Assembly (NCBI GenBank): GCA_040877415.1
Contig: JBBDNV010000128.1
Location: 14,953-78,952 of the forward strand
Length of the DNA stretch: 64,000 bases
Reading direction: 5' to 3'
Source of the DNA: Pirellulales bacterium
GTDB taxonomy: Bacteria > Planctomycetota > Planctomycetia > Pirellulales > PALSA-1355
Shown: positions 13,284 through 40,410 of the stretch, in pieces
Layout: each line of letters opens with the position of its first letter
Numbering within the stretch: position 1 is the stretch's first letter
The notes under the pieces: generated by a model
Told to the model about the DNA's origin: nothing
What the model saw: only the letters and a program-made list of their open reading frames with translations
Database searches by the model: none
Translations under genes and position numbers: made by a program

Positions 13284-16280
13284 ATGAAAATCTTTCCCCG
13301 CGGCACCGCGATCGCCGCATGGGGCTTTTGCGTGCTGGCGGCGTGGGCCGCGCCCGCTTGCGCCCAATTGCCGCCGGATAAAGAGCTGGCGACGCTGCGT
13401 GCCGCGCCCCAGTTCGAGGTCTCGCTGTTTGCGTCCGAGCCCCTGATCACCAACCCCGCGGCCATCGACGTCGATACGCAGGGCCGCTTGTGGGTGGCTG
13501 AAATCCAGTGGTATCGCGGAGCCGCCAAGAGCCTGCCCGCCGACAAGATCAAGGTGCTGGAAGATACCGACGGCGACGGCGTGGCCGACAAAGCCACCGT
13601 TTTTGCCGACGACGTTTTCGCCCCGATGAGCATTTGCGTGGCCGGCGAGCGGGTGTTCGTCGCCACGAGTCCCGACCTGTGGGTCTATGAAGACAAGAAT
13701 GGCGACCTGGTGGCCGACGGCCCGCCCCAAAAGCTGCTCACCGGCTTCGGCGGCAAGAACCACGATCACGGCGCGCACAGCCTCGTGCTCGGGCCCGACC
13801 ACAAGTGGTGGATGTCGCACGGCGACCGGGGCTTTGACGTCCGTGGCACCGACGGCTCGCGCATCAAGTATCAGTGGGGCGCCGTCGTGCGCGGCGAATT
13901 GGACGGCAGCCGGCTCGAAACCGTGGCGGTCAATTTCCGCAATCCGTACGAAGTCTGCGTCAGCTCGTTCGGCGAAGCATTCGTAAGCGACAACGACAAC
14001 GACGGCAACGAAAGCGTGCGCATCTGCTGGATTCTCGAAGGGGGCAACTACGGCTGGTTCGGCGGCCCGCCGTTTGGAAAGCAAGAACTCGACGATCAAC
14101 TCCCCGCCGATACGCCGTTCCGCCGGCATTGGCACTTCCGCGGCCACGTGCCGGGCTTCGTGCCGGCCACGCTGGTCACCGGCTTCGGCTCGCCCTCGGG
14201 CATATGCTTTTACGAGAGCGACGCCTTTGGGCCGAAGTACAAAAACGTTCCGCTGCACGCCGACGCCGGCCCGCGCGAATGTCGCGTCTATCGCCACGAG
14301 CCGGCCGGCTTCGGCATGAAAGCCACGAGCGAAATATTCCTCGGCAACCAGGGGGACGATTACTTTCGACCCGACGACGTTTGCGCGGCGCCCGACGGAC
14401 GGCTGTACGTCGCCGACTGGTACGACGGCGGAGTCGGCGGACACGCTTACAACAATCCCGACCAGGGCCGCATCTTCGTGCTTGCGCCCAAGGGGAAAAA
14501 ACTTTCACGCCGCGAAAAACCGGGGCCGTACGCAAGCATCGCCGATGCCGTCGAAGGCCTCAAAAGCCCCAACCTGGCCACGCAATATCTCGCCCGCGAG
14601 CGGCTGCTGGCCGAAGGTCCTGCGAGCGTGCCGGCACTCGGCGAATTGTTGGCCGGCCCCGAACCGAACCATCGGGCCCGGGCCTTGTGGCTGCTGGACC
14701 GCATCGGGGACGGCGCGCGCGAATCGGTCGAGAGGCAACTAAAATCTCCGGAACCGGCGTTTCGCGCATTGGCGGTGCGCATCTTGCGCCGACACGGAAA
14801 CCAGCACGGCGATGCAATCCTGGCACTGGCCGGTGACTCGTCAGACGAAGTGCGCCGCGAAGTACTGTTGGCCACGCGCTGGCTCGACGGCGAGAAGGCC
14901 GAAGCGGCGCTGGCCCAATTCGCCGCCGACTACGACGGGACCGACCGTTATCTGCTGGAAGCCGTCAACATTGCCGCGGGCGATCGCCGCGAAGCGCTCC
15001 TGGCCCGATTGGAAGCACAAGGCCCGCTGTCGATCGAGCAATTTCCGCTGTTGCAACTGCTCAGTCCTAAGCGGGCGGCCGCCCAACTGGTCGATCGGCT
15101 CCGAGCGGACCATCTCGACGAAAAGACGGCCCGCGCGCTCATCGAAACCGCGGTGAACATTCCGGCGCCCGAGGTCGGCTGGGGTCTGTTGAAGCTGGCC
15201 GAGAATCGGGAACTTTCGGCCGCGCTGCGCCGCGCGGCGCTCGGCAAGGTGGCCGCGGGCGCCAGCCGCGGCGGCGTTTGGGGAGCCATGTCGCGCGATC
15301 CAAAGCTCACGGCCGCGCTAGGTGCCCTATTGGCCGACGACGAGCTGCGCACCACGGCATTGGCAGCCGTGGACGCGCTGCGATTGCGGAAGCTCTGCGA
15401 CAACGTGCTGGCGATCGCGCGCTCGGCCAATCTCGACCCGGCCCAGCGCGAACAAGCCATCGACGTGGCCGCGAACCTCAAGCCCTCGGGCATCGCGCCG
15501 GCCTTGCGCGAGCTTTTGTCCGATCCCGAGCCGGCGGTTTCCGGCGCCGCCTTGCGACGGCTGGTCGATTTGCAAGACATCAAGAGCTTGCGCGAAATAC
15601 TGGCAAGCGACAAATTCTCCGCCGACGCGCGCCGGCGAGCCGTTGACCAGGCCGTCGAAACCACGGCCGGAGCGATCCTGCTCGTGCGGCTGATCGACGA
15701 AGACCGCCTTTCGGACGAATTGAAACGAGCCGTGTTGACCAAGGCCGCCTCGCACGCCGATTCGAACGTCCGCGGGCTGTACGAAAAATTCATCCCCGAA
15801 GACCAGCGGTCGAAGAAACTGGGCAGCGCCATTTCGGCCGACGAGATCCTGGCCCTTGCGGGCGACGCGAACCGCGGGCGGCTGATCTTCTACCAGAGCT
15901 CGGCTGCGGGGTGCCAGCAGTGTCACGCCGTGCAGGGGTTCGGCGGAACGACCGGGCCCGAGCTATCGAATATCGGCAAGAAGTACGAACGAGGGGCGCT
16001 GTTGGAGACCATTCTCGATCCGTCCAAGGCCATCGCCCCGGAATACATACCGTACTTGCTCGAAACGAAAGGCGGCCAGGTGTACGCCGGCTTTCTGGTG
16101 GAGCGCCGGGACGACCGGGTCGTGCTGCGGGACGTCAAGAACAAGACCTGGCGCGTGGCGACCGACGAGGTCGAAGCCCTCGTTGGGCAGCAAAAATCGC
16201 TGATGCCGGAGTTGATATTAAGCGAAGTGACAGCACAGGACGCGGCAGACCTCTTGGCATTTCTCGCAAGCCTCAAGTAA
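13284..16280 (+). CDS. PVC-type membrane-bound dehydrogenase domain / HEAT repeat / c-type cytochrome (CxxCH) protein
   Basis: The ATG at 13284 gives the signal peptide MKIFPRGTAIAAWGFCVLAAWAAPACA. A beta-propeller-like N-terminus (LWVAEIQWY, DTDGDGVADK) is followed by HEAT-like repeats. The C-terminal heme motif is CQQCHAVQGFGGTTGPEL. Confidence 0.8.
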   Translation: MKIFPRGTAIAAWGFCVLAAWAAPACAQLPPDKELATLRAAPQFEVSLFASEPLITNPAAIDVDTQGRLWVAEIQWYRGAAKSLPADKIKVLEDTDGDGVADKATVFADDVFAPMSICVAGERVFVATSPDLWVYEDKNGDLVADGPPQKLLTGFGGKNHDHGAHSLVLGPDHKWWMSHGDRGFDVRGTDGSRIKYQWGAVVRGELDGSRLETVAVNFRNPYEVCVSSFGEAFVSDNDNDGNESVRICWILEGGNYGWFGGPPFGKQELDDQLPADTPFRRHWHFRGHVPGFVPATLVTGFGSPSGICFYESDAFGPKYKNVPLHADAGPRECRVYRHEPAGFGMKATSEIFLGNQGDDYFRPDDVCAAPDGRLYVADWYDGGVGGHAYNNPDQGRIFVLAPKGKKLSRREKPGPYASIADAVEGLKSPNLATQYLARERLLAEGPASVPALGELLAGPEPNHRARALWLLDRIGDGARESVERQLKSPEPAFRALAVRILRRHGNQHGDAILALAGDSSDEVRREVLLATRWLDGEKAEAALAQFAADYDGTDRYLLEAVNIAAGDRREALLARLEAQGPLSIEQFPLLQLLSPKRAAAQLVDRLRADHLDEKTARALIETAVNIPAPEVGWGLLKLAENRELSAALRRAALGKVAAGASRGGVWGAMSRDPKLTAALGALLADDELRTTALAAVDALRLRKLCDNVLAIARSANLDPAQREQAIDVAANLKPSGIAPALRELLSDPEPAVSGAALRRLVDLQDIKSLREILASDKFSADARRRAVDQAVETTAGAILLVRLIDEDRLSDELKRAVLTKAASHADSNVRGLYEKFIPEDQRSKKLGSAISADEILALAGDANRGRLIFYQSSAAGCQQCHAVQGFGGTTGPELSNIGKKYERGALLETILDPSKAIAPEYIPYLLETKGGQVYAGFLVERRDDRVVLRDVKNKTWRVATDEVEALVGQQKSLMPELILSEVTAQDAADLLAFLASLK

Positions 16281-16321
16281 ACTTCCCACCCGAGGCCCTC
16301 CTGTTCCAAGGTAACCCGATC

Positions 16322-19300
16322 GTGCAAACGCGGAAGCGAACAATTCGGCACGTCGTCCGAATCGGCCTGTTGCTTTTGGCGCTGGGCCCCGGCGTGCTCC
16401 CCGCCCAGCCGGCCTCGGCTCAAGCACTGACGCCCGAAGAAGCGCTCAAGCGCTTCAAGCTGGCCGACGGCTTCGACGTCGAGCTCTACGCCAGCGAGCC
16501 GCTGGTGCGGCAGCCGGTGACTATGACGTTCGACGATCGCGGGCGGATGTGGGTGATCCAGTATCTTCAGTATCCCAATCCCGCGGGGCTCAAGCCCCTC
16601 GAGGTCGACCGCTACCTGCGCACCAAGTACGATCGCGTGCCCGCGCCGCCGCCGCTGGGGCCGAAAGGGAACGACAAGATCACGATCCTGGAAGACACCA
16701 ATGGCGACGGCCGCGTCGACCGGGTTAAGGATTTTGTCACCGGACTGAACCTGGCTTCCGCCCTGGCGCTGGGGAACGGCGGAGTCTACGTCGGCCAGGC
16801 GCCCTATTTGTTGTTCTACCCCGATCGCAACGGCGACGACGTGCCCGACGGCGACCCGCAGGTGGTGCTCGATGGTTTTGGCATGGAAGACGCCCACGCG
16901 GTGATCAACTCGATCCAGTGGGGACCCGACGGCTGGCTGTACGGCGCGCAGGGCAGCACGGTGACGGCCGACGTCCGCGGCATCGGCTTTCAGCAGGGCA
17001 TTTGGCGCTATCATCCCCGCACGAAGCGTTTTGAATTGTTTTCCGAGGGGGGCGGCAACACCTGGGGCCTCGATTTCGACCGCCACGGAAACGCCATTGC
17101 CGGCACGAACTACTCGAATGCGGTTTGCCTGCACCAGGTCCAAGGCGGCTACTACGTCAAAGGATTTTCCAAGCACGGTCCGCTGCACAATCCGTACACG
17201 TTCGGCTACTTCGAGCACGTCACGCACCAGGGGCACAACGGCGGGCACGTCACCTGCGGCGGCATCGTCTATCAGGGCGGAGACTGGCCCGAAGAGTTCA
17301 CTGGCGCCTACATCGGCGCGAACCTGCTTTCGAACGCCGTTTACTTTAGCGCGCTGGAGCCGGCGGGTTCCACGTTCAGGACGCGCTACGTCGGCACGCT
17401 GCTGGAGACCGACGACGTCTGGTTCCGCCCGATCGATTGCCTCTGGGGCCCCGACGGCTCGGTGTTCGTCGCCGATTGGTACGACAAGCGGGCCAATCAC
17501 GTGATTCCCGAAGACACGTGGGACAAGACCAACGGCCGGATCTGGAAGATCGTCAAGCGCGGCACGCGGCGGGCCGAACCACTGGCCCTCTCCAAGCTTC
17601 CCAGCGACGAGCTGGTGGATTTGCTCGAGCACGCGAACGCCTGGTATCGGCGCGAGGCGCGGCGCATCTTGTCCGAAAGGCGCGACCTGACGGTGTTGCC
17701 GCGGCTGCGAAGGATGATTGCCACCGGCCGCGAAGCCGTGGCGCTCGAGGCCTTGTGGGCCCTCTATGCGAGCGGCGGCTGGGACGAGGAAACATCGCTG
17801 AGCCTGTTGGATCACGCCAGCGCCGACGTACGCGCCTGGAGCGTGCGCTTCATCGGCGACGACATGCCGCCGCTCGCGCCGGAGCTGCGAAAACGGCTCG
17901 TGCAAATGGCGGAAAAAGAAACCAGCCTTCAGGTGCGCAGCCAACTGGCCTCGACCGCGAAGCGGCTGCGCGCAGCCGACGGGCTGGCCATCGTCGAGAA
18001 ATTCCTGCGCCGCGCCCAAGACAACTCCGACCCCCACATTCCGCTCTTGGTGTGGTGGGCCATCGAGGACAAGGCGATTTCCGACTCCGATCGCGTTTTG
18101 AAAATCCTCGCCGACCCCCAGATCTGGCTGCTGCCGCTGGTTGAGAACACGATCGCCCCGCGGCTCGCGCGGCGCTACCTGGCCGAAGAAACGGACGCCA
18201 GCTTCAGCGCGTGCGCGCGGCTGTTGTCACTGGCCCCGCGCAGCGAAGACGTGCTGCGGCTCATCGCGGCCATGGACCAGGATTTTTCCGGCCGGCCGTT
18301 CGACGAGGTGCCGGCGCCGCTCGCCTCCCTGCTCGCGCGGCTCTGGGAAAGCGCCGATTCGGATCCGATCGTCACCCGGTTCGCCATGCGCATGGGAAAC
18401 CGCGCGGCATACCAGCGGGCGGTCGAGCGCATGATCGACCGCAACGAGCCGCTTAAAGCGCGGCTGGCGCTGGTGTCCGCCGTCGGCCAGGCCGCGCGGG
18501 CCGATGCGCTGCCGCGGTTGCTCAAACTGCTCGACGAGTCGTCATCCAAGGGCGACGCGGTGCGCATGGCGGCGCTGGCGGCGCTCGAACATTATCCGTC
18601 CCAATCGATCGCCCGCGAAGTGCTGGACCGCTACGGGCAGTTCACTCCCGAGCTGCGCAGCCGCGCGATCGGGCTTTTGGCGAGCCGCGCAACGTGGTCA
18701 CAGGCCCTGGTCGAGGAGGTCGCCGCCGGCAAGATCGAAGCGGCCGACGTTTCGGTCGATCAGCTTCGCCAGATGCTGGCGCTGGGCGATCCGGCGCTCG
18801 ATCGATCGATCGAAGCCCGCTGGGGCAAGGTTCGCCCCACCACCCCCGGCGAGAAAATGTCGTACGTCCCGGTGCTCGGCCGCGTGCTGAGCGCGGGACA
18901 GGGCGATCTGGATAGCGGCCACAAGCTGTACATGAAGCATTGCGGCACCTGCCACACGCTGCACGGCGAGGGAATCAAGATCGGGCCCGACCTGACCACC
19001 GCCGACCGCAAGAATCGCGACGCCCTGCTGCTCAGCATTCTCGATCCCAGCGGCTATATCCGCCCCGAGTTCGTCTCGCAAACCGCGCTGTTGAACGACG
19101 GCCGCCTGCTCACGGGGCTCGTGACCGAGTCGAGCCCCCGCGAGATCACGATTGTGGACGCCAAACAGCAGAAGACCACGCTTGCCCGCGACGAGATCGA
19201 CCAGATTCATCCATCGACCACGTCGCTGATGCCGGAGCGTCTGTTGGAAACGCTTGCAGAACAGGAGCTGCGCGACCTGTTCAGCTATCTGCAATCCGAC

Positions 19301-19333
19301 GCCCCGCAGATCCGCTCCGCGGCGAAGCCATAG
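16322..19333 (+). CDS. Second PVC-type membrane-bound dehydrogenase domain / HEAT / c-type cytochrome paralog
   Basis: An in-frame GTG at 16322 gives MQTRKRTIRHVVRIGLLLLALGPGVLPAQPASAQA (signal peptide). The track ORF start at 15911 overlaps the upstream gene. The architecture matches the upstream gene (RMWVIQYLQY, DTNGDGRVDR, HEAT repeats, CGTCHTLHGEG). Confidence 0.8.
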   Translation: MQTRKRTIRHVVRIGLLLLALGPGVLPAQPASAQALTPEEALKRFKLADGFDVELYASEPLVRQPVTMTFDDRGRMWVIQYLQYPNPAGLKPLEVDRYLRTKYDRVPAPPPLGPKGNDKITILEDTNGDGRVDRVKDFVTGLNLASALALGNGGVYVGQAPYLLFYPDRNGDDVPDGDPQVVLDGFGMEDAHAVINSIQWGPDGWLYGAQGSTVTADVRGIGFQQGIWRYHPRTKRFELFSEGGGNTWGLDFDRHGNAIAGTNYSNAVCLHQVQGGYYVKGFSKHGPLHNPYTFGYFEHVTHQGHNGGHVTCGGIVYQGGDWPEEFTGAYIGANLLSNAVYFSALEPAGSTFRTRYVGTLLETDDVWFRPIDCLWGPDGSVFVADWYDKRANHVIPEDTWDKTNGRIWKIVKRGTRRAEPLALSKLPSDELVDLLEHANAWYRREARRILSERRDLTVLPRLRRMIATGREAVALEALWALYASGGWDEETSLSLLDHASADVRAWSVRFIGDDMPPLAPELRKRLVQMAEKETSLQVRSQLASTAKRLRAADGLAIVEKFLRRAQDNSDPHIPLLVWWAIEDKAISDSDRVLKILADPQIWLLPLVENTIAPRLARRYLAEETDASFSACARLLSLAPRSEDVLRLIAAMDQDFSGRPFDEVPAPLASLLARLWESADSDPIVTRFAMRMGNRAAYQRAVERMIDRNEPLKARLALVSAVGQAARADALPRLLKLLDESSSKGDAVRMAALAALEHYPSQSIAREVLDRYGQFTPELRSRAIGLLASRATWSQALVEEVAAGKIEAADVSVDQLRQMLALGDPALDRSIEARWGKVRPTTPGEKMSYVPVLGRVLSAGQGDLDSGHKLYMKHCGTCHTLHGEGIKIGPDLTTADRKNRDALLLSILDPSGYIRPEFVSQTALLNDGRLLTGLVTESSPREITIVDAKQQKTTLARDEIDQIHPSTTSLMPERLLETLAEQELRDLFSYLQSDAPQIRSAAKP

Positions 19334-19438
19334 CTTTCGCGACGGGTCACGTTTCCCCCGGACCCACGCGTAGTTTCCCCAGGGCACTTCCGTCTGGTTC
19401 AGGCCGGCGGATGCCGCTCAATCATGGGAGTTCCGGCG

Positions 19439-19460
19439 GTTCAAATCCAGTTGCCCCGAC
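19439..19460. repeat. Direct repeat copy A (GTTCAAATCCAGTTGCCCCGAC) with a tRNA T-loop-like core; left boundary of the low-GC islet
   Basis: It shares GTTCAAATCCAGT with copy B and TCCAGTyGCCyCGACTyT with copy C. It cannot be folded into a full tRNA. Confidence 0.4.
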
Positions 19461-19616
19461 TTTTGGCCGCGACAGCGGCCAAAAATAGAGCAGGAGAGCT
19501 GTAGAGAGGAGAAAGGAGAGCCAAAAGACGAAGAACGTGCGGTCAACCGTTGAAGCACGGCAGGCCCCTCCTGCGGTCTCCTTTCTACTCTCTACTCTCT
19601 CGTCTTTAGGCACCCG

Positions 19617-19979
19617 ATGCCGTTCGCCTTCGAGAAGTTACAGGTCTATCAGAAGGCGATTTCATTCGCCGATGAAATCTGCACTCTCACGCGCGACCTG
19701 CCGCGAGGATACTTCTTTTTGGCCGACCAGCATAACCGCGCCGCGCTCTCCATCGCCGCCAACATCGCCGAAGGCAACGGCCGCTTCACCAAAGCCGATC
19801 GACGCAACTTTTTCGGCATCGCGCGTGGGTCAGTGCAAGAATGTGTGCCGCCGCTTGAATTGGCCGCGCGGCGGGGCTTGATCAAGACCACGCAGCATGC
19901 TCAATTCAAGTCTCAGCTCGAAGAGATTTCAATGATGCTCTCCGGCCTCATCAAGGGGCTGGACAATCGGGAGATCTGA
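19617..19979 (+). CDS. Four-helix-bundle protein (TIGR02436 / 23S rRNA intervening-sequence protein family)
   Basis: The 120-aa protein MPFAFEKLQVYQKAISFADEICTLTRDLPRGY...AANIAEGNGRF...GSVQEC is typical of the family. It lies in a lower-GC stretch. Confidence 0.7.
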   Translation: MPFAFEKLQVYQKAISFADEICTLTRDLPRGYFFLADQHNRAALSIAANIAEGNGRFTKADRRNFFGIARGSVQECVPPLELAARRGLIKTTQHAQFKSQLEEISMMLSGLIKGLDNREI

Positions 19980-20110
19980 CATGAGCGACTGGACGCCGGC
20001 CAGAAAAGTTCAATAACTGTCCGATTGCCGAGATTCTTGATGATGGGAATGTAATACGTTCCCACTAAGGTACATATAGCCGAGTCGCGACGGGTATTAG
20101 ACAAGACTAT

Positions 20111-20614
20111 GTGCCGAAGGACAACCGCGTGGACGAGACGTTCGCGGATTGCTGGAACCGCAAGCGGTCAAATCTCGGTTTTAAGGATATCGAGACCGAG
20201 TTCATCGATTGCGGTGGGCATGTGCTCCCAAGAGACGCCGCGCCGTGTCTCGTTTTCGATATGGCGGCCCGCCCAGCACCGATCTGGGAAGTGTTCGGCA
20301 TTCCGTCCGACTGGTCGCCGGCGGATCGCGAGCGGCTGGCGGCGTGCCGGATGATTGGCTCGGACGGTGCCGGCAATCCAATCTGCGTGGAGCTGGGCAC
20401 CGGGGTAGTCGTACTCCTCGATCACGAGGACTGGTTTCGCACTCGTCAGTTCGTGAATACGAGCGTCCAGAAACTCGCCGAGTGCTTGTTGGCGTACATT
20501 GGTCAGCAAGAGTCGGAGCGGTTCCGCTCAGCCGCGCAGGCCATCGATCCGGCAGCGTTTGCGGTGGGATCGTTCTGGTGGCACGATGCCGCTTGCTTGG
20601 ACACAGACGCCTGA
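20111..20614 (+). CDS. SMI1/KNR4 (SUKH-1) family protein, putative polymorphic-toxin immunity protein
   Basis: The SUKH core signature is present as IGSDGAGNPICVELGTGVVVLLDHEDW (compare IGxDGxGNxLCLDL...V..DHE). The local GC content is lower than in the surrounding genes. Confidence 0.6.
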   Translation: MPKDNRVDETFADCWNRKRSNLGFKDIETEFIDCGGHVLPRDAAPCLVFDMAARPAPIWEVFGIPSDWSPADRERLAACRMIGSDGAGNPICVELGTGVVVLLDHEDWFRTRQFVNTSVQKLAECLLAYIGQQESERFRSAAQAIDPAAFAVGSFWWHDAACLDTDA

Positions 20615-20662
20615 CGGAGCCCCCTTCACCACAGGCCCGGCGAAGGATTGCCCAGGGTGACC

Positions 20663-20686
20663 GTTCAAATCCAGTCGCCTCTCGCC
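20663..20686. repeat. Direct repeat copy B (GTTCAAATCCAGTCGCCTCTCGCC)
   Basis: It shares 13/13 nt with copy A (GTTCAAATCCAGT) and 12/12 nt with copy C (TCCAGTCGCCTC). It sits between the plus-strand gene pair and the minus-strand module. Confidence 0.4.
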
Positions 20687-20812
20687 GCACAGGCGAGGTT
20701 ACGCCGTGAGCTTCACGACCCTTGTCGCGATTTGGACTTCCGGCCCGGAATGCAGGAAGCTTGCCACGTAGTCGTGGACAAACGGTTCAAACGAGCGACA
20801 GTCGCCCCGATC

Positions 20813-21160
20813 TTATCGTAACGTCAAATCCCGTCGTCGGTTGCTACAGCGACTGGGGACCGGATTTGAACTTTTCTGAGCAATCATGCTCCAAATGGCT
20901 TTTGGCTTTCGTCGTCTCGACGGGGCACCTTGGCACTTCGACCTTTCTTGCTCCTGACGAAGTGCATAGCCATCGAGTCCTGAGTTTCGCTTCGTGGGGA
21001 AGACTCGACCGCCAGACTGCTGGTATCCTCCCGGCTGTGTAGCCCACCCCTGTTCTTTCTTCTTCCTCGCAAAGTACACCGCCTCAGCCTTACCTAAATT
21101 TAATTTACCGCACGCTGACGCGCAATCGATTCTTCCCGATACCGAAGATATTCCTTCCAC
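20813..21160 (-). pseudogene. Orphan-like gene fragment created by a ~135 bp duplication of the 3' region of the 270-aa gene
   Basis: The aa stretch GKAEAVYFARKKKEQGWATQPGGYQQSGGRVFPTKRNSGLDGYALRQEQE is about 90% identical to the C-terminal region of the 21530..22342 product. The flanking sequence is unrelated. It overlaps the 151-aa gene by 61 nt. Confidence 0.4.
20937..21072. repeat. ~135 bp direct DNA repeat, copy 1 (about 90% identical to 21719..21855)
   Basis: The near-identical string acgaagtgcatagccatcgagtcctgagtttcgctt.gtggggaagac...ctgttctttcttcttcctcgcaaagta occurs in both copies. Confidence 0.7.
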
Positions 21161-21555
21161 AACTTCAGCATTTGCACAACTTCATCGACGAGTTCAAGGC
21201 AATCGGTGTTGCCGCATTGTGCTGCCGCGTGAGCGCATTCGTCCATGAGCGCGTGAAACCGAGGCAATTGTTCGAGCGCCCACGTTTCCGACGCCGTCCA
21301 TTGAGGTGCGCTCGTGATAAAACCATCGAGCTGGATGTCAAACGCGAGGTACGTGTAGACAAACGCCGAGAATTTCCAAACCTTGCTGTCTGTCGCCGAT
21401 CTCCACTCCTGGTCGATAGGAGTTTCGTAAAGCCCCAGTTCGCACCCTCCGCAATTGAGTAAGCATTCGTCGAACGCGCACAGAAATCTTTTTGCGGGAT
21501 GCGTGTCCTCCAACGACATGACTGGACGATTAATGGTCTTGCGGCGATGTCTCAT
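21100..21555 (-). CDS. Hypothetical Cys-rich cytoplasmic protein, candidate immunity/partner protein of the upstream 270-aa gene
   Basis: The 151-aa ORF has diverse, non-GC-biased composition (ECLLNCGGCELGLYETPIDQEW...). It overlaps the upstream gene by 26 nt (translational coupling). No family was recognised. Confidence 0.45.
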   Translation of the reverse strand: MRHRRKTINRPVMSLEDTHPAKRFLCAFDECLLNCGGCELGLYETPIDQEWRSATDSKVWKFSAFVYTYLAFDIQLDGFITSAPQWTASETWALEQLPRFHALMDECAHAAAQCGNTDCLELVDEVVQMLKLWKEYLRYREESIARQRAVN

Positions 21556-22342
21556 TTTGTCGATTTTTTGCCTGTTTGATCGCGCGCTGTAACGCAGCTT
21601 CCAGCTCAGGATCGTCTAGCCGATCCGGGTGTCCTGTCCGCCCTTCCCCGGCTACACTAGCCTGCCCGCGTAAGTATTCAGGATCGTGCCCTTGCGCTAG
21701 TCCTCGCCTGAAGAAGTCTTCTTGCTCTTTACGAAGTGCATAGCCATCGAGTCCTGAGTTTCGCTTAGTGGGGAAGACGCGCCCGCCAGACTGCTGGTAA
21801 CCTCTCGGCTGTACTGCCCACCCTTGTTCTTTCTTCTTCCTCGCAAAGTATACCGCTTCCGCCTTGCCAAGAAAATCCATGGCAGACTTGTGAACGAGCG
21901 ACATCCGGTCGCCGGTCGGCTTAAAGCCTTGCGCCTCGGCGCCGAGCACGGCGGTGTTGAAGATCTGCACGGCATCGTCACGCGAGAGAGTTCCAGCTCG
22001 AACCCGTTTCTCAAGCTCGTAGACCCAGATCTGTGGCATCGCCTGAACGCCGGGCACGCGAGCCCAATAGGCCCCCAGGATGGCATTGCGAAGGCCACCT
22101 ATGAATGCGCCGGCTCCGATACCCGCCCCCACCGCTGCGCCAGCGCCGGCCCCGCTTCCGACTTTGGGAAGCCAAGAGCTCGTCGGCCCCGTCGTTGGCC
22201 AAGTCGACGATTGTGCGCCGCTGAAAGAAACGAGCTGCGCGGTTGTTTGGTCCCGTTGAAACGCCGCAGTTTGAATCGGATTGGATTCGGCGCCGCTTAC
22301 TTCGCAAAGCAACGCCAACAGCCGGTCACTCCAGACAGCCAA
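21530..22342 (-). CDS. Hypothetical protein with a glycine-zipper segment (GSGAGAGAAVGAGIGAGAFIGG); its C-terminal portion is duplicated downstream
   Basis: The 270-aa ORF is in the low-GC islet. It has a Gly/Ala zipper typical of membrane-inserting peptides or toxins. Its C-terminal 110 aa contain the duplicated module. Confidence 0.5.
   Translation of the reverse strand: MAVWSDRLLALLCEVSGAESNPIQTAAFQRDQTTAQLVSFSGAQSSTWPTTGPTSSWLPKVGSGAGAGAAVGAGIGAGAFIGGLRNAILGAYWARVPGVQAMPQIWVYELEKRVRAGTLSRDDAVQIFNTAVLGAEAQGFKPTGDRMSLVHKSAMDFLGKAEAVYFARKKKEQGWAVQPRGYQQSGGRVFPTKRNSGLDGYALRKEQEDFFRRGLAQGHDPEYLRGQASVAGEGRTGHPDRLDDPELEAALQRAIKQAKNRQNETSPQDH
21719..21855. repeat. ~135 bp direct DNA repeat, copy 2
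   Basis: See copy 1 at 20937..21072. Confidence 0.7.
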
Positions 22343-22358
22343 CTCTCGGTAAAAAAGT

Positions 22359-22376
22359 TCTAACGGTATCCAGTCG
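22359..22376. repeat. Direct repeat copy C (TCCAGTCGCCTCGACTCT); right boundary of the low-GC islet
   Basis: It shares 12/12 nt with copy B and 15/18 nt with copy A. Confidence 0.4.
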
Positions 22377-22579
22377 CCTCGACTCTGAAATCGAACAGCC
22401 CTTCATCGATCACGGTGCAGGGCTGTTCGTCGTTTCAGGAATGCGACTTACGGCGAATGCCAAATAAGTGGGCTGGGTTCAAATCAAGCGCGAGAAAGAC
22501 CGGGCGACGTCCAAAGTTTCCTACTGTTGGCTTTGGCGAGTTCAAACATCCCGTCGCCCCGCAACAAGATGATCGTGCC

Positions 22580-22602
22580 AGAAAATCGGTCGTTTTTCGA
22601 GA
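22580..22602. promoter_or_regulatory. 21-bp palindromic motif, copy 1 (agaaaatcggtcgtttttcgaga)
   Basis: Consensus cAAAAATCGGTCnTTTTTCGA with AAAAAT/ATTTTT arms. It lies immediately 3' of the DUF1501 gene 2 stop. Confidence 0.45.
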
Positions 22603-22617
22603 TCACTGAACGCGGCA

Positions 22618-24015
22618 TCACCCGATGATCTCCTTCACCACTTCGCCGCGGGAGATGGGGAACGGACGTCCGAGCGCGTCGTGCAGTTCGGCCGTCGGAG
22701 AATAGCCCAGGCAATGGTAAAGGGTGGCCAGCAGGTCCGGTGGGCGGACCAGTCCTTCCATCGGTTCGCCGCCGATCGCGTCGGACGCGCCGTGCACGTG
22801 TCCCCCACGGATGCCGCCTCCGGCCATGGCCACCGAAAACACATTTCCCCAATGATCGCGGCCGCCCGCCGCGTTGATTTTTGGAGTGCGACCGAACTCC
22901 GCCAGACAAACGACCAACGTGTCGTCGAGCATGCCGCGATCGACCAAATCGCCGAGCAAGGCCGAATACGCCTGGTCGAACTGCGGCAGCAGCACGCTGC
23001 GCAGCCGCTGGATCTCCCGGGTGTGTGAATCCCAGCACGGGGTATCTGAAGGCTCGTCGGGAGAGCGAAACCAATTGACTTGAACTAAGCTCACGCCCGC
23101 TTCCACCAACCGGCGAGCCAAGAGCACGCTCTGACCGAACTGCGTGCGCCCGTAACGATCGCGGGCGGCGGCTGGCTCAGCTTCGAGCTGGAAGGCGGCT
23201 CGCGAACGTGGCGACGTGAGCAGATCGAACGCCTGCCGCGTGGCGGCGTCGAACGGCGCCAGCGCTCCGCCGCGCTCGACGGCCGCGCGGTGCCCGTTCA
23301 TCACGGACAAAAGGGACCGTCGCCCTTCGAGCCTGGTCAGCGGCAAGTCAGTCGGCAGCGTAAATTCCGGAATCCTGAAGTTGGCCGACGCCGGCTCGCA
23401 GCGGAACATCCACGGGTCGAACGCACGACCGAGGAACCCGGCGTCTTGCCCCGGCCAAATGGAACCATCCGTATTGAAGATCTGGTGCGGCAATCGCACG
23501 GCCGAGGGCAGTGACGTAGCGCCGTCACGGAGGCGGCGAATCATCGAACCGAAACTCGGCCAGTTGTTGGGCGCGCCCGGATTGGCATTCTCCATGTTCA
23601 TCGGCGCATGGGGCTGACCGGTCAACATGTAGTAGCCGCTCGATGAATGGGCGTTGTCGCCCGTTCGCACGGCGCGCAACAGGCACAGGTGCCTGGCCAA
23701 CAAGGATGTCTTGGGCAGCAATTCGGCCACGTTCAGGCCGGGTACCGTCGTGGCAATGGACTTGAGTTCGCCGCGGACCTCGATGGGAGCGTCGGGCTTG
23801 GGGTCCCAGGTGGAATGCTGGGCGGGCCCCCCGAACAGAAACAGAACGATGCATGACTTGGCGCGCCCGCGACGAGGCGCGGCGTCTTCGGCGGCCGCCT
23901 GCCGCAACAAGTCGGGCAATGTCAAACCGGCCACGCCAAGCGACCCAATTCGCAGCATCTCTCGTCGCGAAATTCCATCGCACAATCGCACCGGCTGCGA
24001 CTCAATCGTGAACAT
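22618..24015 (-). CDS. DUF1501 family protein with a twin-arginine signal (second copy)
   Basis: The ATG at 24015 gives MFTIESQPVRLCDGISRREMLRIGSLGVAGLTLPDLLRQAAA. It carries DUF1501 motifs (GGPAQHSTWDPKP, AEFGRTP, GRDHW). The track ORF start at 24126 is an extension. Confidence 0.85.
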   Translation of the reverse strand: MFTIESQPVRLCDGISRREMLRIGSLGVAGLTLPDLLRQAAAEDAAPRRGRAKSCIVLFLFGGPAQHSTWDPKPDAPIEVRGELKSIATTVPGLNVAELLPKTSLLARHLCLLRAVRTGDNAHSSSGYYMLTGQPHAPMNMENANPGAPNNWPSFGSMIRRLRDGATSLPSAVRLPHQIFNTDGSIWPGQDAGFLGRAFDPWMFRCEPASANFRIPEFTLPTDLPLTRLEGRRSLLSVMNGHRAAVERGGALAPFDAATRQAFDLLTSPRSRAAFQLEAEPAAARDRYGRTQFGQSVLLARRLVEAGVSLVQVNWFRSPDEPSDTPCWDSHTREIQRLRSVLLPQFDQAYSALLGDLVDRGMLDDTLVVCLAEFGRTPKINAAGGRDHWGNVFSVAMAGGGIRGGHVHGASDAIGGEPMEGLVRPPDLLATLYHCLGYSPTAELHDALGRPFPISRGEVVKEIIG

Positions 24016-24074
24016 GGTTGTGATCTGTCGGACGGTGCGACCATCGCTGCACCCCGGCAGCGTCAGATTCTGGC

Positions 24075-24098
24075 CGCTCCTGGTCAAAAATCGGTCAT
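24075..24098. promoter_or_regulatory. 21-bp palindromic motif, copy 2 (tcaaaaatcggtcatttttcgaca), about 60 nt upstream of the DUF1501 gene 2 start
   Basis: This is the best palindrome of the family. Its position is consistent with an operator or promoter element. Confidence 0.5.
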
Positions 24099-24137
24099 TT
24101 TTCGACACGGCAAGGGGAACAAGCAAAGGACCGTAAT

Positions 24138-25283
24138 CTAATGCGGCGATCGAAGTTCACCACACGCAAAAAGCGCGAGGACGGCATACGCGGTCCCCGC
24201 GTTGGAGATGAGATGCCGCGTGTGCCACGCTTGGGACGGAGTGAACCACCGACCGCTTTCACGCTGATTACTTTTCAGCCACGTAAGGCCTCGCTGCAGA
24301 CGAGGATCGCCAGCTGACAGGCCTGCCTGACGAGCCACGAAGATAACGAAGCCTGTAGCGTATCCGTCACTCGAGAGAGAACTCTTGTAGGCGTCCTCAC
24401 GCCCAATGTAGGGAAGGAACTGGGTCCCGTACCCCTTTTCAGCCTTTGCTTTGGTCACTCGATCAGTCTCCAGCGACGGATCGTTGGCGTTGTCAACGAG
24501 GTTGGCCATGGACCAACCGCCATCGGGCCGCTGGACGTCCATCAGATTTGCCAGAATCTCTGCCTTGGCCTCAGCCGGCAGCAGGTCGTCAACGTAAATC
24601 GACGCCCAGAGCAACATCGCTTTCTGGTGAAGACTGACTGCCGTCGTTCTTCTCAAGAATCGACGAACGCCCTCGATTCCCGCTTTGGCTGTCGGGGTGT
24701 TGGCATAATCGCCCGGAGCCATTCCGGTTCCGACGGCAGCCAAGGTGACTCCGTAATGTTCATCAATCTTCAAGGGCGGTGTATCTCTGAACGGCCAGGC
24801 CCAGCCTCCGTCTGAGCGCTGAAGCGTCCACATGTGGTCGAGCGCTTGGCGGGTAAGCGGATGCAACTTGCCGGTCAGCCAGCGGTCGTTGAGGGCCATT
24901 GCCGAGGCCACGCCAATGGCAACGGCTCCGTCGACATCCTTGCACGAATAGTCGGGCATCGCCTCCCGCTTCCCTGCGACAATTTCCTCGAAGAATTGCC
25001 GAACTTCTGCTGATTGTGGCGAGACACTACCCAGTGTCGGCCGGGCCATCAAGTATGGGAACATCGTGTGGCACGCCGTGCAGGCATGAGTTTTCTGCCA
25101 GTCCAGCGCGGCGCTGTCGAGGTAGCGAGCCGCTCGCTCCAGGGAGAATTCCTTCGCGTGAGGCTCGTTTGGTGCAATGTCCGCAGGCGATTCGACAGAT
25201 TCCGGAGTTATTGGTTCCGTGGCTTTCGACACGGACGCGATGCAAGCGGTGACAATAAGGATTGGCCCGGCGAGTTTTCTCAT
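24138..25283 (-). CDS. Secreted c-type heme (CxxCH) protein with prenyltransferase/squalene-oxidase-like repeats
   Basis: A signal peptide is present. The heme motif is HACTACH. QW-type repeats are QRSDGGWAW, QRPDGGWS and NQRESGRWF. Confidence 0.6.
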   Translation of the reverse strand: MRKLAGPILIVTACIASVSKATEPITPESVESPADIAPNEPHAKEFSLERAARYLDSAALDWQKTHACTACHTMFPYLMARPTLGSVSPQSAEVRQFFEEIVAGKREAMPDYSCKDVDGAVAIGVASAMALNDRWLTGKLHPLTRQALDHMWTLQRSDGGWAWPFRDTPPLKIDEHYGVTLAAVGTGMAPGDYANTPTAKAGIEGVRRFLRRTTAVSLHQKAMLLWASIYVDDLLPAEAKAEILANLMDVQRPDGGWSMANLVDNANDPSLETDRVTKAKAEKGYGTQFLPYIGREDAYKSSLSSDGYATGFVIFVARQAGLSAGDPRLQRGLTWLKSNQRESGRWFTPSQAWHTRHLISNAGTAYAVLALFACGELRSPH

Positions 25284-25545
25284 GGCGTAAGCATACCGCT
25301 TGGAGGATTCGAACGAAAGTTAAAAACGTTGGTTTGCTGCGGCTCGCAGCAGGGCCAAATCGGCGCGAACTCGCAGCCGCGCGTCCTTCCGACAATACGC
25401 GTGAATTCTCGGGACGCTAAGACGGTCCTGTAAAACGGATGAGTTTTTGACACAGTCGGCGAGACGCGTCATCAAACGGTGGTTATTCGGCGCGTCGCAA
25501 GCAAGTCATGAGTTGACGCCGAGTGGAGCGGCAAGATGACGTAAG

Positions 25546-27960
25546 TCATTGATTTGGCCCAGCCGACCAATGGTTGCCCCAGCCAGAGTAGAGGTCATGA
25601 AGAAAGGCTCGCCATTCTTCAGTGGAACGGGAAGGCGGATAGGGAATAGGTGGTTCCGGCTTGGCGGCGGTCCAGACGACTTCGAATTGGCCGTCCGCTA
25701 GTACTCGGCCGATACGCGGAGTCTTGAATGTATGCTGGGTTGCGGGGTCGATGCGAACGTCGCCTCCCGGAGAACGAATTCTTTGGTTGAGCATGGCGCG
25801 GCGAATCTCTGACACGTCAGTGCTCTGCGCGTCAGCAACCGCTTTTGCCCAGAGCTTCACGCCGAAATAGGCGGCTTCCATCGGATCGGTCACTACTCGT
25901 TGAGGTCCGTATTTCGCGCGAAAGCTGGAAACGAATTTGTGATTCTCGGGCGACTCCACGCTTTGAAAGTAATTCCACGCCGCGTAGTCACCCACCATCG
26001 CCGAAACATCCAATTGTCTTAGCGTTTCCTCTTCGACGCTGAACGAGATTGTTGGCACTGACTGGGGCGTGATTCCTGCCTTCCGTAGGTCGGTGAAGAA
26101 CGCCAGGTTGGAATCGCCGTTTATCGAGTTGAGGATGACATCCGGTTTTGCGCTCCTGATCTTTTCAATAATGGGCTGAACGACAGTGCTTCCGAGCGGC
26201 AAATACTCCTCCCCGACCAATTCCGCGCCCAACTCTTTCAGTTGGTCTTTGATAATTGCGTGTGCCACGCGAGGAAAGACATAGTCGGAACCCACAAGAA
26301 AGAATCGCCGTTTGTTTTCGAACGCATACGCCCACTTAACAGCGGGGATGATTTGCTGATTCGGTGCAGCCCCCGTGTAAATCACGTTCGGCGATTCTTC
26401 GATTCCTTCGTACTGCACGGGATATACCAACAGATGATTGTGCTCTTCAAAGATCGGCACGACCGTTTTGCGACTTGCCGAGGTCCAACAGCCGAAGACC
26501 GTGCAAACATGCTCTTTGTTGATCAGCCGTTCAGCTTCGCGGGCGAACGTGGTGGAATCGGATCGGCCGTCTGCCACGACACCCTCGATGGGGCGTCCCA
26601 AGAGACCGCCATCGCGGTTTAGCTCGTGGATTGCCAATAACGTGGCATCGGCGACCGCCGATTCGTTGTGCGCCATAGTCCCCGTCAGCGAATGCAATAT
26701 TCCGACTCGGATCGGTTCACCGGTTGGAGGCGTGATCAAAGTTGGCGAGAGATTGTTCTTATTGGCTCCCGTATTGATTGCCTCCTTCGTGCCACCGTCG
26801 CGCGAGCCAAGACCAAACATGAAGAAAGCAGCAGCCGCGGCGGCTACCAGCGTCATTGCCGTCCCTGCAACCGCTGCCCAGCGAAACCGGCTCTGACTGA
26901 CTGGGGTCGGGGCGGCGGGCGGCCGTGACAGGTTTGTCGCGGATTGGCTGGGTAGCGTAATTCCGGCGCCGGACATCGCCGCCAAAAGGGCTTCCAAATC
27001 CGCACGCATTTCGTCCATCGACTGGTACCTTTGCTCTGGCTTAGTCGCCATCGCACGCTGGACGATCTGCGCACATACTGCGGGGACGGTCGCACTGACT
27101 TCGCGCGGATCTGGTGGGCCCGCGTTGCAGTGCGCGTACATCACTTGAATGATGCTAGCGCTGTCCTGGAATGGGCTCTTACCGGTCAGCAAACTGTAAT
27201 AGGTGCCTCCCAGAGAGTAGATGTCGCTCCGCGCATCAACTTCGCGCGATTCGCATTGCTCCGGGCTCATGTAGTACGGTGTACCGACAATGTGCCCGGC
27301 CTGAGTCATCAGCATTGTCTGGCTCTGCGTTCGTTTCGCCAATCCAAAATCAGAAACTTTGACGGTCCCGTTTTGCGTAAGCAAGAGATTGGCTGGCTTA
27401 ATGTCGCGATGGACCAGCCCTACCTCGTGCGCTGCAGACAGCCCCTTACACGCTTCAATGGCAATGCGAGTTGCTTCGCCGACAGAGTACGCGCCGGCTT
27501 GCTCTAAGTGTTCCGCGGCGCTTCCGGCTGATACGATTTCCATCACCAAGTAATGTGCGGGGCCTTCCTGGGCTACTTCATAAATCGTCACGGCGTTGGG
27601 ATGGTTGAGTTTGCCGGCGCTTTTGGCTTCGGCCAGGAAGCGGTGCAAACTGGCCTCATCCGCCGACAGATCGGCTGGCAAGACCTTGATAGCGACATCG
27701 CGTTCGATGGACGGATCGTGCCCCTTAAGCACCACGCCCATTCCACCAACGCCCAGGAGTGCCGTAATCTCGTACTTCCCCAATCGGCGTCCCACCCACT
27801 GTTCGGGGGCGCTCTGTAATCCGCTTTGCGACAAGGACGCGGTATCGCCGCTAAAGTTCATGGTTTCGCCAAATGAACTAGCCTTATCGCAGTCGACGCC
27901 TTTTTTCTCAGCGTCCGCGGCTCGTTCGGGCACCTGAGAATTCACGGTGAACCTTGGCAA
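25546..27960 (-). CDS. Ser/Thr protein kinase fused through a TM helix to a periplasmic-binding-protein (Leu/Ile/Val-binding, ANF-receptor-like) domain
   Basis: Kinase motifs are GVGGMGVVLKG, AIKVL, HRDIKPANLLL and DFGLA. The TM helix is AAVAGTAMTLVAAAAAAFFMFGL. The C-terminal type I PBP-like domain is ...VVADGRSDSTTFA...PVQYEG.... The true start may be an internal ATG (MNFSGD). Confidence 0.85.
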   Translation of the reverse strand: MPRFTVNSQVPERAADAEKKGVDCDKASSFGETMNFSGDTASLSQSGLQSAPEQWVGRRLGKYEITALLGVGGMGVVLKGHDPSIERDVAIKVLPADLSADEASLHRFLAEAKSAGKLNHPNAVTIYEVAQEGPAHYLVMEIVSAGSAAEHLEQAGAYSVGEATRIAIEACKGLSAAHEVGLVHRDIKPANLLLTQNGTVKVSDFGLAKRTQSQTMLMTQAGHIVGTPYYMSPEQCESREVDARSDIYSLGGTYYSLLTGKSPFQDSASIIQVMYAHCNAGPPDPREVSATVPAVCAQIVQRAMATKPEQRYQSMDEMRADLEALLAAMSGAGITLPSQSATNLSRPPAAPTPVSQSRFRWAAVAGTAMTLVAAAAAAFFMFGLGSRDGGTKEAINTGANKNNLSPTLITPPTGEPIRVGILHSLTGTMAHNESAVADATLLAIHELNRDGGLLGRPIEGVVADGRSDSTTFAREAERLINKEHVCTVFGCWTSASRKTVVPIFEEHNHLLVYPVQYEGIEESPNVIYTGAAPNQQIIPAVKWAYAFENKRRFFLVGSDYVFPRVAHAIIKDQLKELGAELVGEEYLPLGSTVVQPIIEKIRSAKPDVILNSINGDSNLAFFTDLRKAGITPQSVPTISFSVEEETLRQLDVSAMVGDYAAWNYFQSVESPENHKFVSSFRAKYGPQRVVTDPMEAAYFGVKLWAKAVADAQSTDVSEIRRAMLNQRIRSPGGDVRIDPATQHTFKTPRIGRVLADGQFEVVWTAAKPEPPIPYPPSRSTEEWRAFLHDLYSGWGNHWSAGPNQ

Positions 27961-28301
27961 ATTGTGGACTTCGGGCAGCAGCCCCGCAGCTGAAGCTTAG
28001 GAGTTTTTATTCTACCATGAGTTCTGAGTCACGACACAAGTGCTTAAGCGGTGCCCTAAAGATCGCCAATCGTGCGGTAGCCGGTCGTCAGACGGAGTGC
28101 AATTACGCATCACGGCAGAAAACCAAGTATCGTTGGGTTCTCGGCACGTCTCATAAAACCCCACATCGGCCGTTTCTCGGGACACCGGCTGGAGGTGCGT
28201 AAGAGAGGAGGCGTTTTTCGAGGCGAGCAGCGTCAACTTCCGGATTACAATGCGTGGCCGAGGGCACATCCATACGATGCTAGATTGTCGAGGCCCCAGC
28301 G

Positions 28302-29816: not shown

Positions 29817-29944
29817 AGAGAACCGTTCAGCGCAACGACCAACGGAACGAGACTCTGCCTTCGAATCGCAATGGCCAAAGGGCAACTCACCGGACTAGGA
29901 ATCAGTCTGTCGATGGCGAACCGTGGCAGACAAATGCCCCGCCG

Positions 29945-29999
29945 GCTCAAAAATCGGTCTTATTTCAGGACGTTCCAAAAATCGGTCGGGTTTGATTGG
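29945..29999. promoter_or_regulatory. 21-bp palindromic motif, copies 3 and 4 in tandem (ctcaaaaatcggtcttatttcagga / tccaaaaatcggtcgggtttgattgga)
   Basis: Two adjacent copies sit 150-200 nt upstream of the small lysine-rich ORF. Confidence 0.45.
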
Positions 30000-40362: not shown

Positions 40363-40410
40363 GCCGTGTTCCTCCTGGGTTGGGCGTCACGCGGCGACCA
40401 ACCGACTTCG

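Follow-up and report, generated by a model that had tools for sequence, protein, structure and literature searches.

Integrons carry small, mostly single-gene, promoter-less cassettes in co-oriented arrays at a fixed platform, and arrays without an integrase (clusters of attC sites lacking integron integrases, CALIN) also exist. The border sites of these cassettes are conserved in structure and length over sequence, and the cargo is rich in small unknown, immunity-type or toxin-type genes. Four-helix-bundle (4HB) proteins of the family PF05635 are known from intervening sequences of 23S rRNA and, more distantly, as Avd in diversity-generating retroelements; we know of no established function for members of the family. 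In Dehalococcoides, tandem genomic islands specific for ssrA are bounded by 20-bp repeats of the ssrA 3' end, with a conserved element-borne motif positioned just upstream of each (PMC3146451). Integrase-less elements flanked by attachment (att) sites occur in tandem accretion, and these cis-mobilizable elements (CIMEs) have been described as decay products of ICEs (integrative and conjugative elements) or IMEs (integrative and mobilizable elements) (PMC5704250). Coxiella's intervening sequence (IVS), which is located inside helix 45 of the 23S rRNA and has its open reading frame (ORF) within the element, has been called a selfish genetic element (PMC4990558). Here, we analyse an islet of repeats and small genes in a 64,000-nt stretch of DNA (the window) from a Pirellulales bacterium (contig JBBDNV010000128.1 of assembly GCA_040877415.1, positions 14,953 to 78,952). 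The repeats of the islet are copies of the 3' end of tRNA-Pro, and behind the first of them lies an intact member of a family of 4HB units linked to genes of tRNA and transfer-messenger RNA (tmRNA).

The preliminary description of the window reported three copies of a direct repeat with a tRNA T-loop-like core, at 19439, 20663 and 22359. The 19-mer GTTCAAATCCAGTYGCCYC is present exactly at 19439-19457 and 20663-20681, both on the plus strand, and no further match occurs elsewhere in the 64-kb window with up to three mismatches allowed (0.05 expected). The third copy is a gapped 26-nt variant: 22357-22382 reads GTTCTAACGGTATCCAGTCGCCTCGA and has in common with the second copy only the exact 13-mer ATCCAGTCGCCTC. 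When one genome per species was scanned, at least 120 stretches with the 19-mer were found, compared with an estimated ~17 expected by chance. Among the matches listed, 101 of 130 sit at the 3' ends of tRNA-Pro genes predicted by ARAGORN, with anticodons GGG, CGG and UGG, and end 2-6 nt before the end of the gene. The 19-mer spans the T-loop, the 3' strand of the T-stem and the 3' strand of the acceptor stem of tRNA-Pro. Most of the other listed matches are partial 3' pieces of tRNA-Pro like those left at island borders, often several per locus. The repeats are thus shown to be copies of the last 21-26 nt of tRNA-Pro; the derivation of their core from a tRNA 3' end, proposed before, holds and is now specific to one tRNA. 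An origin of the motif TTCAAAT in the anticodon arm of tRNA-Sec or tRNA-Leu is excluded, since all tRNA matches listed are T-arms of tRNA-Pro. Four loci of Thermoleophilia/Solirubrobacterales (comparison loci are given by L numbers; here L088, L095, L103 and L109) hold two to three copies of the tRNA-Pro 3' half, from the anticodon stem onward, per 8 kb, and their similar left parts (GGGACGC...CATCGAC...) suggest tandem islands of a different integrase class at tRNA-Pro.

The consensus 3' 22-mer of tRNA-Pro was aligned with gaps to both strands of the whole window. The six top alignment scores all fall inside the islet and on the plus strand, with alignments ending at 19459 (score 40), 20810 (31), 20685 (30), 22563 (30), 22382 (27) and 22493 (24), and the best score outside the islet is 23. 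By these scores, at least five robust and two borderline copies are confined to 3.1 kb (19.4-22.6 kb), more than the three counted before. The earlier observation as a whole is partly confirmed. The copies are of two kinds, a 21-nt type with a true T-loop and a 26-nt "pseudo-T-arm" type (Table 1). A 22-bp imperfect inverted repeat at 20822-20871 has two arms (TCAAATCCCGTCG and CGACTGGGGACCGGATTTGA) that both resemble a T-loop with the 3' strand of the T-stem and is followed by ACTTTTCTG; its alignment score equals the background. A CRISPR-like repeat, considered because the reverse complement GGATTTGAAC follows a hairpin, is excluded, given copies spaced 1.2-1.7 kb apart, their identity with a tRNA and the lack of an array. 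A consensus scan for promoter and terminator motifs found no promoter-like site and nothing at the repeats.

Copy a, the first of the repeats, continues into a compact unit composed of a perfect hairpin (hairpin-1), a conserved leader and an intact 4HB gene. An nhmmer profile built from 46 leaders matches the window at 19453-19610 with an E-value of 2.7e-32; this is the sole copy in the window, and the fold of the leader has a z-score of -5.1. The 4HB protein is 72-84% identical to thousands of proteins from Planctomycetota and metagenomes. The cargo between the 4HB gene and the next repeat is small and varied, being a SUKH-4 protein in the window, a Barstar protein in L178 and unassigned elsewhere, and no homologue of the SUKH-4 protein was found in other 4HB loci. 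Copy d is likely the right border of this first cassette. Cassette 1, which extends from 19461 to ~20810, is shown to be an intact member of a recurrent t(m)RNA-linked family with conserved hairpin and leader, and not an anonymous decayed island. The tRNA remnant upstream of hairpin-1 comprises the last 22 nt only, with no intact co-oriented tRNA or tmRNA.

The family emerged from the 80 most similar 4HB loci (72-83% identity), which were fetched from metagenomes by protein only; 67 of them have enough upstream sequence. At 53 of these 67 decidable loci, the 4HB start is preceded by an intact co-oriented tRNA gene whose end lies 121-262 nt upstream. The tRNA species are Pro (42 loci), Arg (4), Gln (3), Glu (2), Ser (1) and His (1), to which further look-ups added tRNA-Ala in L208, an NCBI Pirellulales assembly, and tRNA-Pro in L207. 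In L191, a complete tmRNA gene (2045-2402; Rfam 147 bits) is followed at once by hairpin-1, the leader and the 4HB gene; therefore, the unit also rides behind ssrA. Altogether, 4HB units stand behind a tmRNA and no fewer than 11 distinct tRNA species. A tRNA 3' piece in place of a tRNA, as in the window, is found in 8 of the 67 loci. The close homologues with a name are from Pirellulales, Planctomycetia, Brocadiia and Phycisphaerae, and the cassette family is so far named only in Planctomycetota. Its neighbours are housekeeping genes. In L207 and L208, no recombinase gene lies closer than 10 kb to the cassettes, and no relatives were found among the viral contigs of IMG/VR, on which ground carriage by phages was rejected. 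The t(m)RNA-linked 4HB family is apparently undescribed, as no description of a tRNA-4HB linkage was found in the literature searched, which does not prove the unit undescribed.

The structure of the unit upstream of its gene is highly regular. In 41 of 47 distinct relatives, the interval from the discriminator (or the encoded CCA) to the motif TAGAG is wholly a perfect hairpin of variable sequence, and the other six hairpins are off by about one base at the boundary. The hairpin is followed, in constant order, by TAGAGCAGGAGAG, a tract of purines, a variable loop, CTCTCCTGCGG and a tract of pyrimidines. Because the same hairpin types follow different tRNA species, the hairpin is part of the unit rather than of the tRNA gene; near-identical hairpins stand behind tRNA-Pro sequence in the window and behind tRNA-Ala in L208. 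The leader profile matches 79 of the 80 loci and the window once, compared with none of 126 control loci, 120 of which are tRNA-Pro loci. The P2 stem formed by GCAGGAGAG and CTCTCCTGC shows compensatory changes at eight of its nine pairs, a result equalled by none of 500 shuffles, and its strands pair in 86% as opposed to 44-60% in slid controls. No Rfam family matches the leader or the hairpin. The tracts of the leader look like inverted arrays of heptamers (GTAGARA / TYTCTAC), similar to Shine-Dalgarno (SD) and anti-SD sequences; they are predicted to fold into a hairpin of high stability (z = -5), but do not covary.

Several observations concern the state of individual units. Tandem cassettes occur in L129, L171, L198, L154/L173, L135 and L200. 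In L200 (69-1250), a 4HB cassette lies within a tRNA cluster (Arg-His-[cassette]-Arg-Lys), and a second, partial leader follows the ORF. Locus L049 (2196-2510), from a metagenome-assembled genome of Planctomycetota, contains an intact tRNA-Pro(GGG) and, ~170 nt later, a decayed 4HB pseudogene (KAVRRSFFGIARG...); this remnant is evidence of cassette decay in place. Many of the contigs with 4HB units (L127-L206) are just 1-2 kb long, which would fit assembly breaks at a multi-copy element.

The 26-nt repeats differ from genuine tRNA ends in length. The segment GTTCRA...CCCCGA spans 21 nt in 39 true tRNA-Pro genes, whereas 22 distinct non-tRNA copies from the 4HB loci and the window are exactly 26 nt long, with the layout GGTTCRAA, a variable insert and CAGTCRCCCCGA. 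At least 18 loci have the 26-nt repeat together with 4HB cassettes, in one of two positions. It lies either 178-2048 nt downstream of the 4HB stop codon (L130, L145, L178, L129, L171, L167, L168 and L189) or directly before the next hairpin and leader, in tandem arrays or tRNA-less loci (L132, L174, L184, L203 and others). Over 27-30 nt, copy d shares 90-96% identity with the sites in L130, L171, L132 and L177; no other part of the islet beyond the 4HB unit resembles those loci in nucleotide sequence. It is shown that copies d and g represent the conserved 26-nt border site of the 4HB unit. Where a resident tRNA can be compared with the repeat downstream, identity is confined to the last 6-13 nt and never reaches into the T-loop, and some repeats have T-stem or acceptor variants foreign to the resident tRNA. 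A minihelix fold of the 26-mers, with acceptor stem and T-arm, was rejected upon inspection, as they have no consistent 5' partner strand.

We consider it fairly probable that the islet is the remains of an array of tiny cassettes that lack an integrase and were attached to the 3' end of a tRNA-Pro, the body of which has been lost. The islet itself is decayed and probably immobile. The earlier interpretation, as a decayed integrative element or tandem insertion scar, is right in kind and partly supported. Cassettes may be gained and lost through site-specific recombination in the terminal 6-13 nt of the tRNA. Such recombination would generate the tRNA-end repeats and let tandem arrays grow at their tRNA-proximal end, and internal junctions, in which a 26-mer is joined to a hairpin and leader, would be the expected product of successive tRNA-proximal insertions. 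Since no recombinase is encoded in or near the cassettes, it would have to be supplied in trans. The strict co-orientation with the tRNA and the hairpin starting at the base after the discriminator suggest that the 4HB gene may be expressed by read-through from the tRNA promoter. A putative RNase Z-like cleavage after the discriminator would then produce an mRNA with a fully paired 5' hairpin; 5'-terminal hairpins are known to stabilise mRNAs.

Several results weigh against the islet being such a cassette array. We observed no polymorphism in the presence or absence of a single cassette, no excision product and no empty site. No recombinase was identified anywhere, and mobilisation in trans is a conjecture; the 30 context loci yielded no integrase in a Pfam screen with a listing of only 25 families and in a crude regular-expression screen, an absence that is not rigorous. 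ARAGORN finds no tRNA in the whole window, so that neither end of the array has an intact tRNA-Pro, and the 62 nt upstream of copy a resemble 41 tRNA-Pro 5' parts no better than shuffled sequences do. The downstream repeats are found at some of the Pro-linked loci only and at none of those with other tRNA species. A simple crossover within the last 13 nt does not account for the true T-loop kept in copies a and c. In the leader, a long purine/pyrimidine helix is present in 39 of 46 minimum-free-energy folds, but its variable positions do not covary and it cannot form together with P2, the stem that does covary. L121, the closest relative found, lacks 16.5 kb of the window (19337-35812) and not the islet alone, and its left flank is not alignable. 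Homologues of the minus-strand module between copies d and g, in L124, L125 and L126, are bordered neither by a tRNA nor by tRNA fragments.

The absence of a tRNA and of an integrase agrees with what had been noted before: in addition to the ARAGORN result, the Rfam search of 19000-23000 gave no tRNA match even at E<=10 and no rRNA match, and no integrase or recombinase family turned up among those ORFs of the 15.9-36.5 kb region that were scanned with Pfam. We saw no remnants of ICEs or IMEs. D-arm-like and anticodon-like pieces of a decayed tRNA can be picked out by eye upstream of copy a; this candidate was rejected, as 223 of 300 shuffles were as good.

Among the alternatives, the repeats might be ordinary scars, that is, attR remnants from the repeated integration and deletion of conventional integrase-bearing prophages or islands at tRNA-Pro, with the present genes as leftovers and the link to the 4HB unit incidental. 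Arrays of tRNA-Pro 3' fragments beside tRNA-Pro genes are indeed common in other phyla, as in the four Thermoleophilia/Solirubrobacterales loci (L088, L095, L103 and L109), and copies a and c begin at the T-loop like the fragments in L084, L054 and L104. The low GC content of the islet and its truncated genes also speak for scars. However, copy a abuts the hairpin-leader-4HB unit base for base in the same way as intact tRNAs do at 53 other loci. Copies d and g belong to the fixed-length variant, which accompanies 4HB cassettes at 18 or more loci, with copy d 90-96% identical to its counterparts, and the ORFs scanned between 15.9 and 36.5 kb contain no integrase remnant. We regard ordinary scars as unlikely.

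The unit could also be an ancient operon of Planctomycetota, inherited vertically without any mobility, in which tRNA, hairpin, leader and 4HB gene are co-transcribed; the extra repeat copies would then have arisen by local duplication and decay, and the unit would be degenerating here. The co-orientation and tight spacing of all 53 units with an upstream tRNA are compatible with this history, as are the housekeeping neighbours, the lack of a recombinase nearby and the lack of viral-contig relatives. It is difficult to reconcile with proteins of 72-84% identity and near-identical hairpins behind at least 11 tRNA species and a tmRNA, with the tandem cassettes (L129, L171, L198, L154/L173, L135 and L200), and with repeats whose T-stem or acceptor variants are foreign to the resident tRNA. 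Furthermore, a 4HB gene, even as a remnant, is present at just one of eight tRNA-Pro control loci of Planctomycetota. An immobile operon is, in our judgement, quite improbable.

We give very little credence to a third alternative, in which the repeats act as punctuation of RNA, namely as tRNA-like processing signals for RNase P or RNase Z that separate cassette mRNAs, and not as recombination sites. The robust copies all share the strand of the 4HB and SUKH-4 genes and are intergenic, and the 26-nt variant keeps its length while its inner sequence varies, both of which would suit a processing signal. On inspection, however, no copy has a complementary 5' strand of the acceptor or T-stem with which to form a minihelix, the Rfam tRNA model finds no match even at E<=10, and the genes between copies d and g are on the opposite strand. 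A generic dispersed repeat of the repetitive extragenic palindromic (REP) kind, or a chance similarity, has only the shortness of the motif in its favour and is effectively refuted within the window by two exact 19-mers where 0.05 were expected, by the placement of all robust and top-scoring gapped matches of the 64-kb window within 3.1 kb, and by the identity of the motif with the tRNA-Pro 3' end.

Table 1. Features of the islet and its flanks (window coordinates)
Feature	Position	Strand	Remarks
DUF7133/HEAT/cytochrome-c protein gene (left flank)	ends 19333		
Copy a, bare tRNA-Pro 3' fragment GGTTCAAATCCAGTTGCCCCGAC, 21-nt T-loop type	19438-19460	+	21/22 bases equal to consensus tRNA-Pro end, through discriminator A (19459); score 40
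Hairpin-1, TTTTGGCCGC-GACA-GCGGCCAAAA	19461-19484	+	perfect; starts 1 base past discriminator, ends 2 nt before TAGAG
Conserved ~125-nt leader	19486-19610	+	leader profile, P2 covariation
Leader, elements in order: TAGAG; P2 5' strand GCAGGAGAG; purine tract; variable loop	19490-19498 (P2 5' strand); 19501-19521 (purine tract)		
Leader, further elements: P2 3' strand CTCTCCTGC; pyrimidine tract	19566-19574 (P2 3' strand); 19577-19601 (pyrimidine tract)		
4HB protein gene, 23S_rRNA_IVP family/TIGR02436, intact, 120 aa	19617-19979	+	PF05635 E 1e-29; TIGR02436 E 2e-28
SUKH-4 family (immunity-type) protein gene, cargo of cassette 1	20111-20614	+	PF14435 E 1.4e-11
Copy c, tRNA-Pro 3' fragment CGTTCAAATCCAGTCGCCTCTC, 21-nt type	20662-20683	+	acceptor part diverged; score 30
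Copy d, 26-nt pseudo-T-arm repeat GGTTCAAACGAGCGACAGTCGCCCCGA	20784-20810	+	score 31
Partial second copy of internal segment of toxin-like gene, pseudogene remnant in ORF 20813-21160	20945-21094	-	150 nt, 90% identity
Partner gene of toxin-like gene, 151 aa, putative immunity	21100-21555	-	homologous ~150-aa gene after ~400-aa gene in L124, L125, L126
Toxin-like gene, 5'-truncated, 270 aa, of ~400-aa family	21530-22342	-	homology only up to ~22296
Copy g, 26-nt pseudo-T-arm repeat AGTTCTAACGGTATCCAGTCGCCTCGA	22356-22382	+	third copy of the preliminary description; score 27
G+C-rich hairpin GAACAGCCCT...AGGGCTGTTC, then GTCGTTTC	22392-22429	+	inverted repeat in sequence
Copy h, weak T-loop-like remnant GGTTCAAATCAAGCGCGA, borderline	22476-22493	+	score 24 (background best 23)
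Copy i, tRNA-Pro 3' fragment AGTTCAAACATCCCGTCGCCCCGC	22539-22562	+	loop 2 nt longer; score 30
DUF1501 gene (right flank)	22618-24126	-	

The interval between the 26-nt repeats at 20810 and 22357 contains inverted remnants of a toxin-like gene and its partner. The gene inventory of the preliminary description stands as regards the flanks, the plus-strand pair and the existence of three minus-strand ORFs, but the third of these ORFs (20813-21160) is a partial duplicate of the first. The window is 82% identical in nucleotides to L126 over 21122-22296. Relatives of the toxin-like protein share residues ~20-170, and some end in nuclease domains of the types HNH (PF01844), AHH (PF14412) or PF21431. 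In the relatives examined, the ~150-aa partner always follows the gene of the ~400-aa family. We call the gene polymorphic-toxin-like because some relatives have HNH or AHH nuclease C-termini, and the minus-strand module looks like a polymorphic-toxin/immunity locus with an orphan fragment. The toxin-like and partner proteins of the window match no toxin or immunity family in Pfam, NCBIfam or PADLOC, and a known defence system was rejected, as PADLOC gave no match.

Full-length members of the family (P0121, P0122, P0128 and P0139; ~400 aa) contain an N-terminal coiled coil with an EGxWDPSxHP motif and a hydrophobic, glycine-rich stretch, and have no assignment in Pfam, NCBIfam or PADLOC. L124 carries two members of the toxin-like family with SUKH-type neighbours. 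That the module forms a tRNA-bordered cassette elsewhere was rejected on account of L124, L125 and L126. Because these homologues lack tRNA-derived borders, "cassette 2" may be unrelated DNA situated between two repeats, and the bracketing of the second sub-module by repeats, as first described, does not carry over to its relatives. The hairpin that follows copy g is possibly the original tRNA trailer or a terminator; it failed the terminator scan.

The GC content of the islet (19337-22617) is 0.573, compared with 0.629 for the window, which places it in the lowest 2% of 3.3-kb windows and bears out the low GC reported before. A second stretch at 24-32 kb is as GC-poor as the islet. L121, which is 84% identical in protein and 85% in nucleotide sequence, is collinear with the window at 13562-19336, resumes at window position 35813 and, past another gap, at 41540; the second segment extra to the window is 38190-41539, ~3.3 kb. 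Besides the islet, 19337-35812 holds the DUF1501 gene, a cytochrome/prenyltransferase-like gene, a Ser/Thr kinase with a periplasmic binding domain, an AMP-binding enzyme, a polyketide-cyclase-like gene, an SPFH gene, a 587-aa protein and a DoxX gene. The comparison with relatives proposed earlier thus yields a gap, but of 16.5 kb and not of the 3-kb islet, and given this size and a left flank that defies alignment, no clean empty site can be demonstrated for the islet. Right-flank homology with L121 does begin at a TCAAAC motif, but past the stop codon the left flank shows no homology, and a clean insertion of the 19337-35812 segment at the pseudo-att site GTTCAAACCC of L121 is not supported.

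The more distant L122 and L123 keep an HSP70-HSP70-DUF7133-DUF7133 block upstream, with other genes downstream and no tRNA. Two HSP70-like genes and two tandem DUF7133/HEAT/cytochrome-c paralogues (window 13.5-19.3 kb) are present in all relatives examined (L121-L123), and synteny breaks exactly at the stop codon of the second DUF7133 paralogue. The locus is a synteny breakpoint.

tRNA 3'-end repeats bordering an accessory islet are ordinary; a tightly conserved and widespread unit behind them is less so. Only tentatively, we propose that Planctomycetota harbour an apparently undescribed class of mobile cassettes of 0.6-2.6 kb, composed of a 5' hairpin, a structured leader, a 4HB gene, optional immunity-type cargo and a 26-nt pseudo-T-arm site. 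Such cassettes might insert precisely at the 3' ends of tRNA and tmRNA genes by means of a recombinase acting in trans, form integron-like arrays that grow tRNA-proximally, be expressed from the tRNA transcript, and be released by RNase Z as hairpin-capped mRNAs. If this is true, PF05635 proteins would be riders on stable-RNA genes, comprising rRNA intervening sequences, tRNAs and tmRNA. A third stable-RNA context for the family suggests a common, testable life-style. The cassettes offer a candidate system for integrase-less, cassette-style gene capture outside integrons, as well as a structured leader that is new, conserved and without an Rfam entry. In annotation, bare ends of tRNA-Pro (21-26 nt) beside genes of a "four helix bundle protein" would mark cassette borders and not random scars.

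The locus resembles several described systems in part. The 4HB protein has a distant similarity to Avd of diversity-generating retroelements (NF033474, E 2.5e-4), but its 21 bits compare with a cut-off of 80, and no reverse transcriptase or template/variable repeats were seen near the 4HB gene among the neighbouring ORFs. With the 23S rRNA IVS, it has in common a protein of the same family, PF05635, encoded in a stable-RNA transcription unit beside strongly paired RNA. Unlike in the IVS, a tRNA or tmRNA lies upstream of the gene, the ORF comes after the paired leader, and the flanks are protein-coding.

The 4HB arrays are similar to integron and CALIN arrays in their small co-oriented cassettes, in a promoter that could be supplied by the platform, in borders conserved in length, and in the type of cargo. 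They differ in having a tRNA or tmRNA gene as platform and the same 4HB gene in nearly every cassette, and IntI was not found. By inspection, and without a formal attC model, GTTCAAA also has a C where the GTTRRRY of attC needs a purine.

Similarly to CIMEs, which keep attL and attR, have no integration or transfer genes and stand in tandem at the 3' end of the target gene (PMC5704250), the islet consists of modules flanked by tRNA ends, without integration or transfer genes. In contrast to CIMEs, the 4HB cassettes are conserved, compact and intact-looking, with their own hairpin and leader, and no helper element is known. The Dehalococcoides islands are several kb or more in size, and 16 of them have a serine-recombinase integration module next to attL (PMC3146451), whereas the modules here measure 0.6-2.6 kb, encode no recombinase and, in the window locus, lack the anchoring tRNA. 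In both systems, successive modules that are strain-specific and low in GC lie downstream and are bounded by direct repeats of t(m)RNA 3' ends; some of the modules are without integration genes (PMC3146451). Both also place an element-borne motif before the repeat, which in the 4HB cassettes is the GGTTCRAA+N part of the 26-mer.

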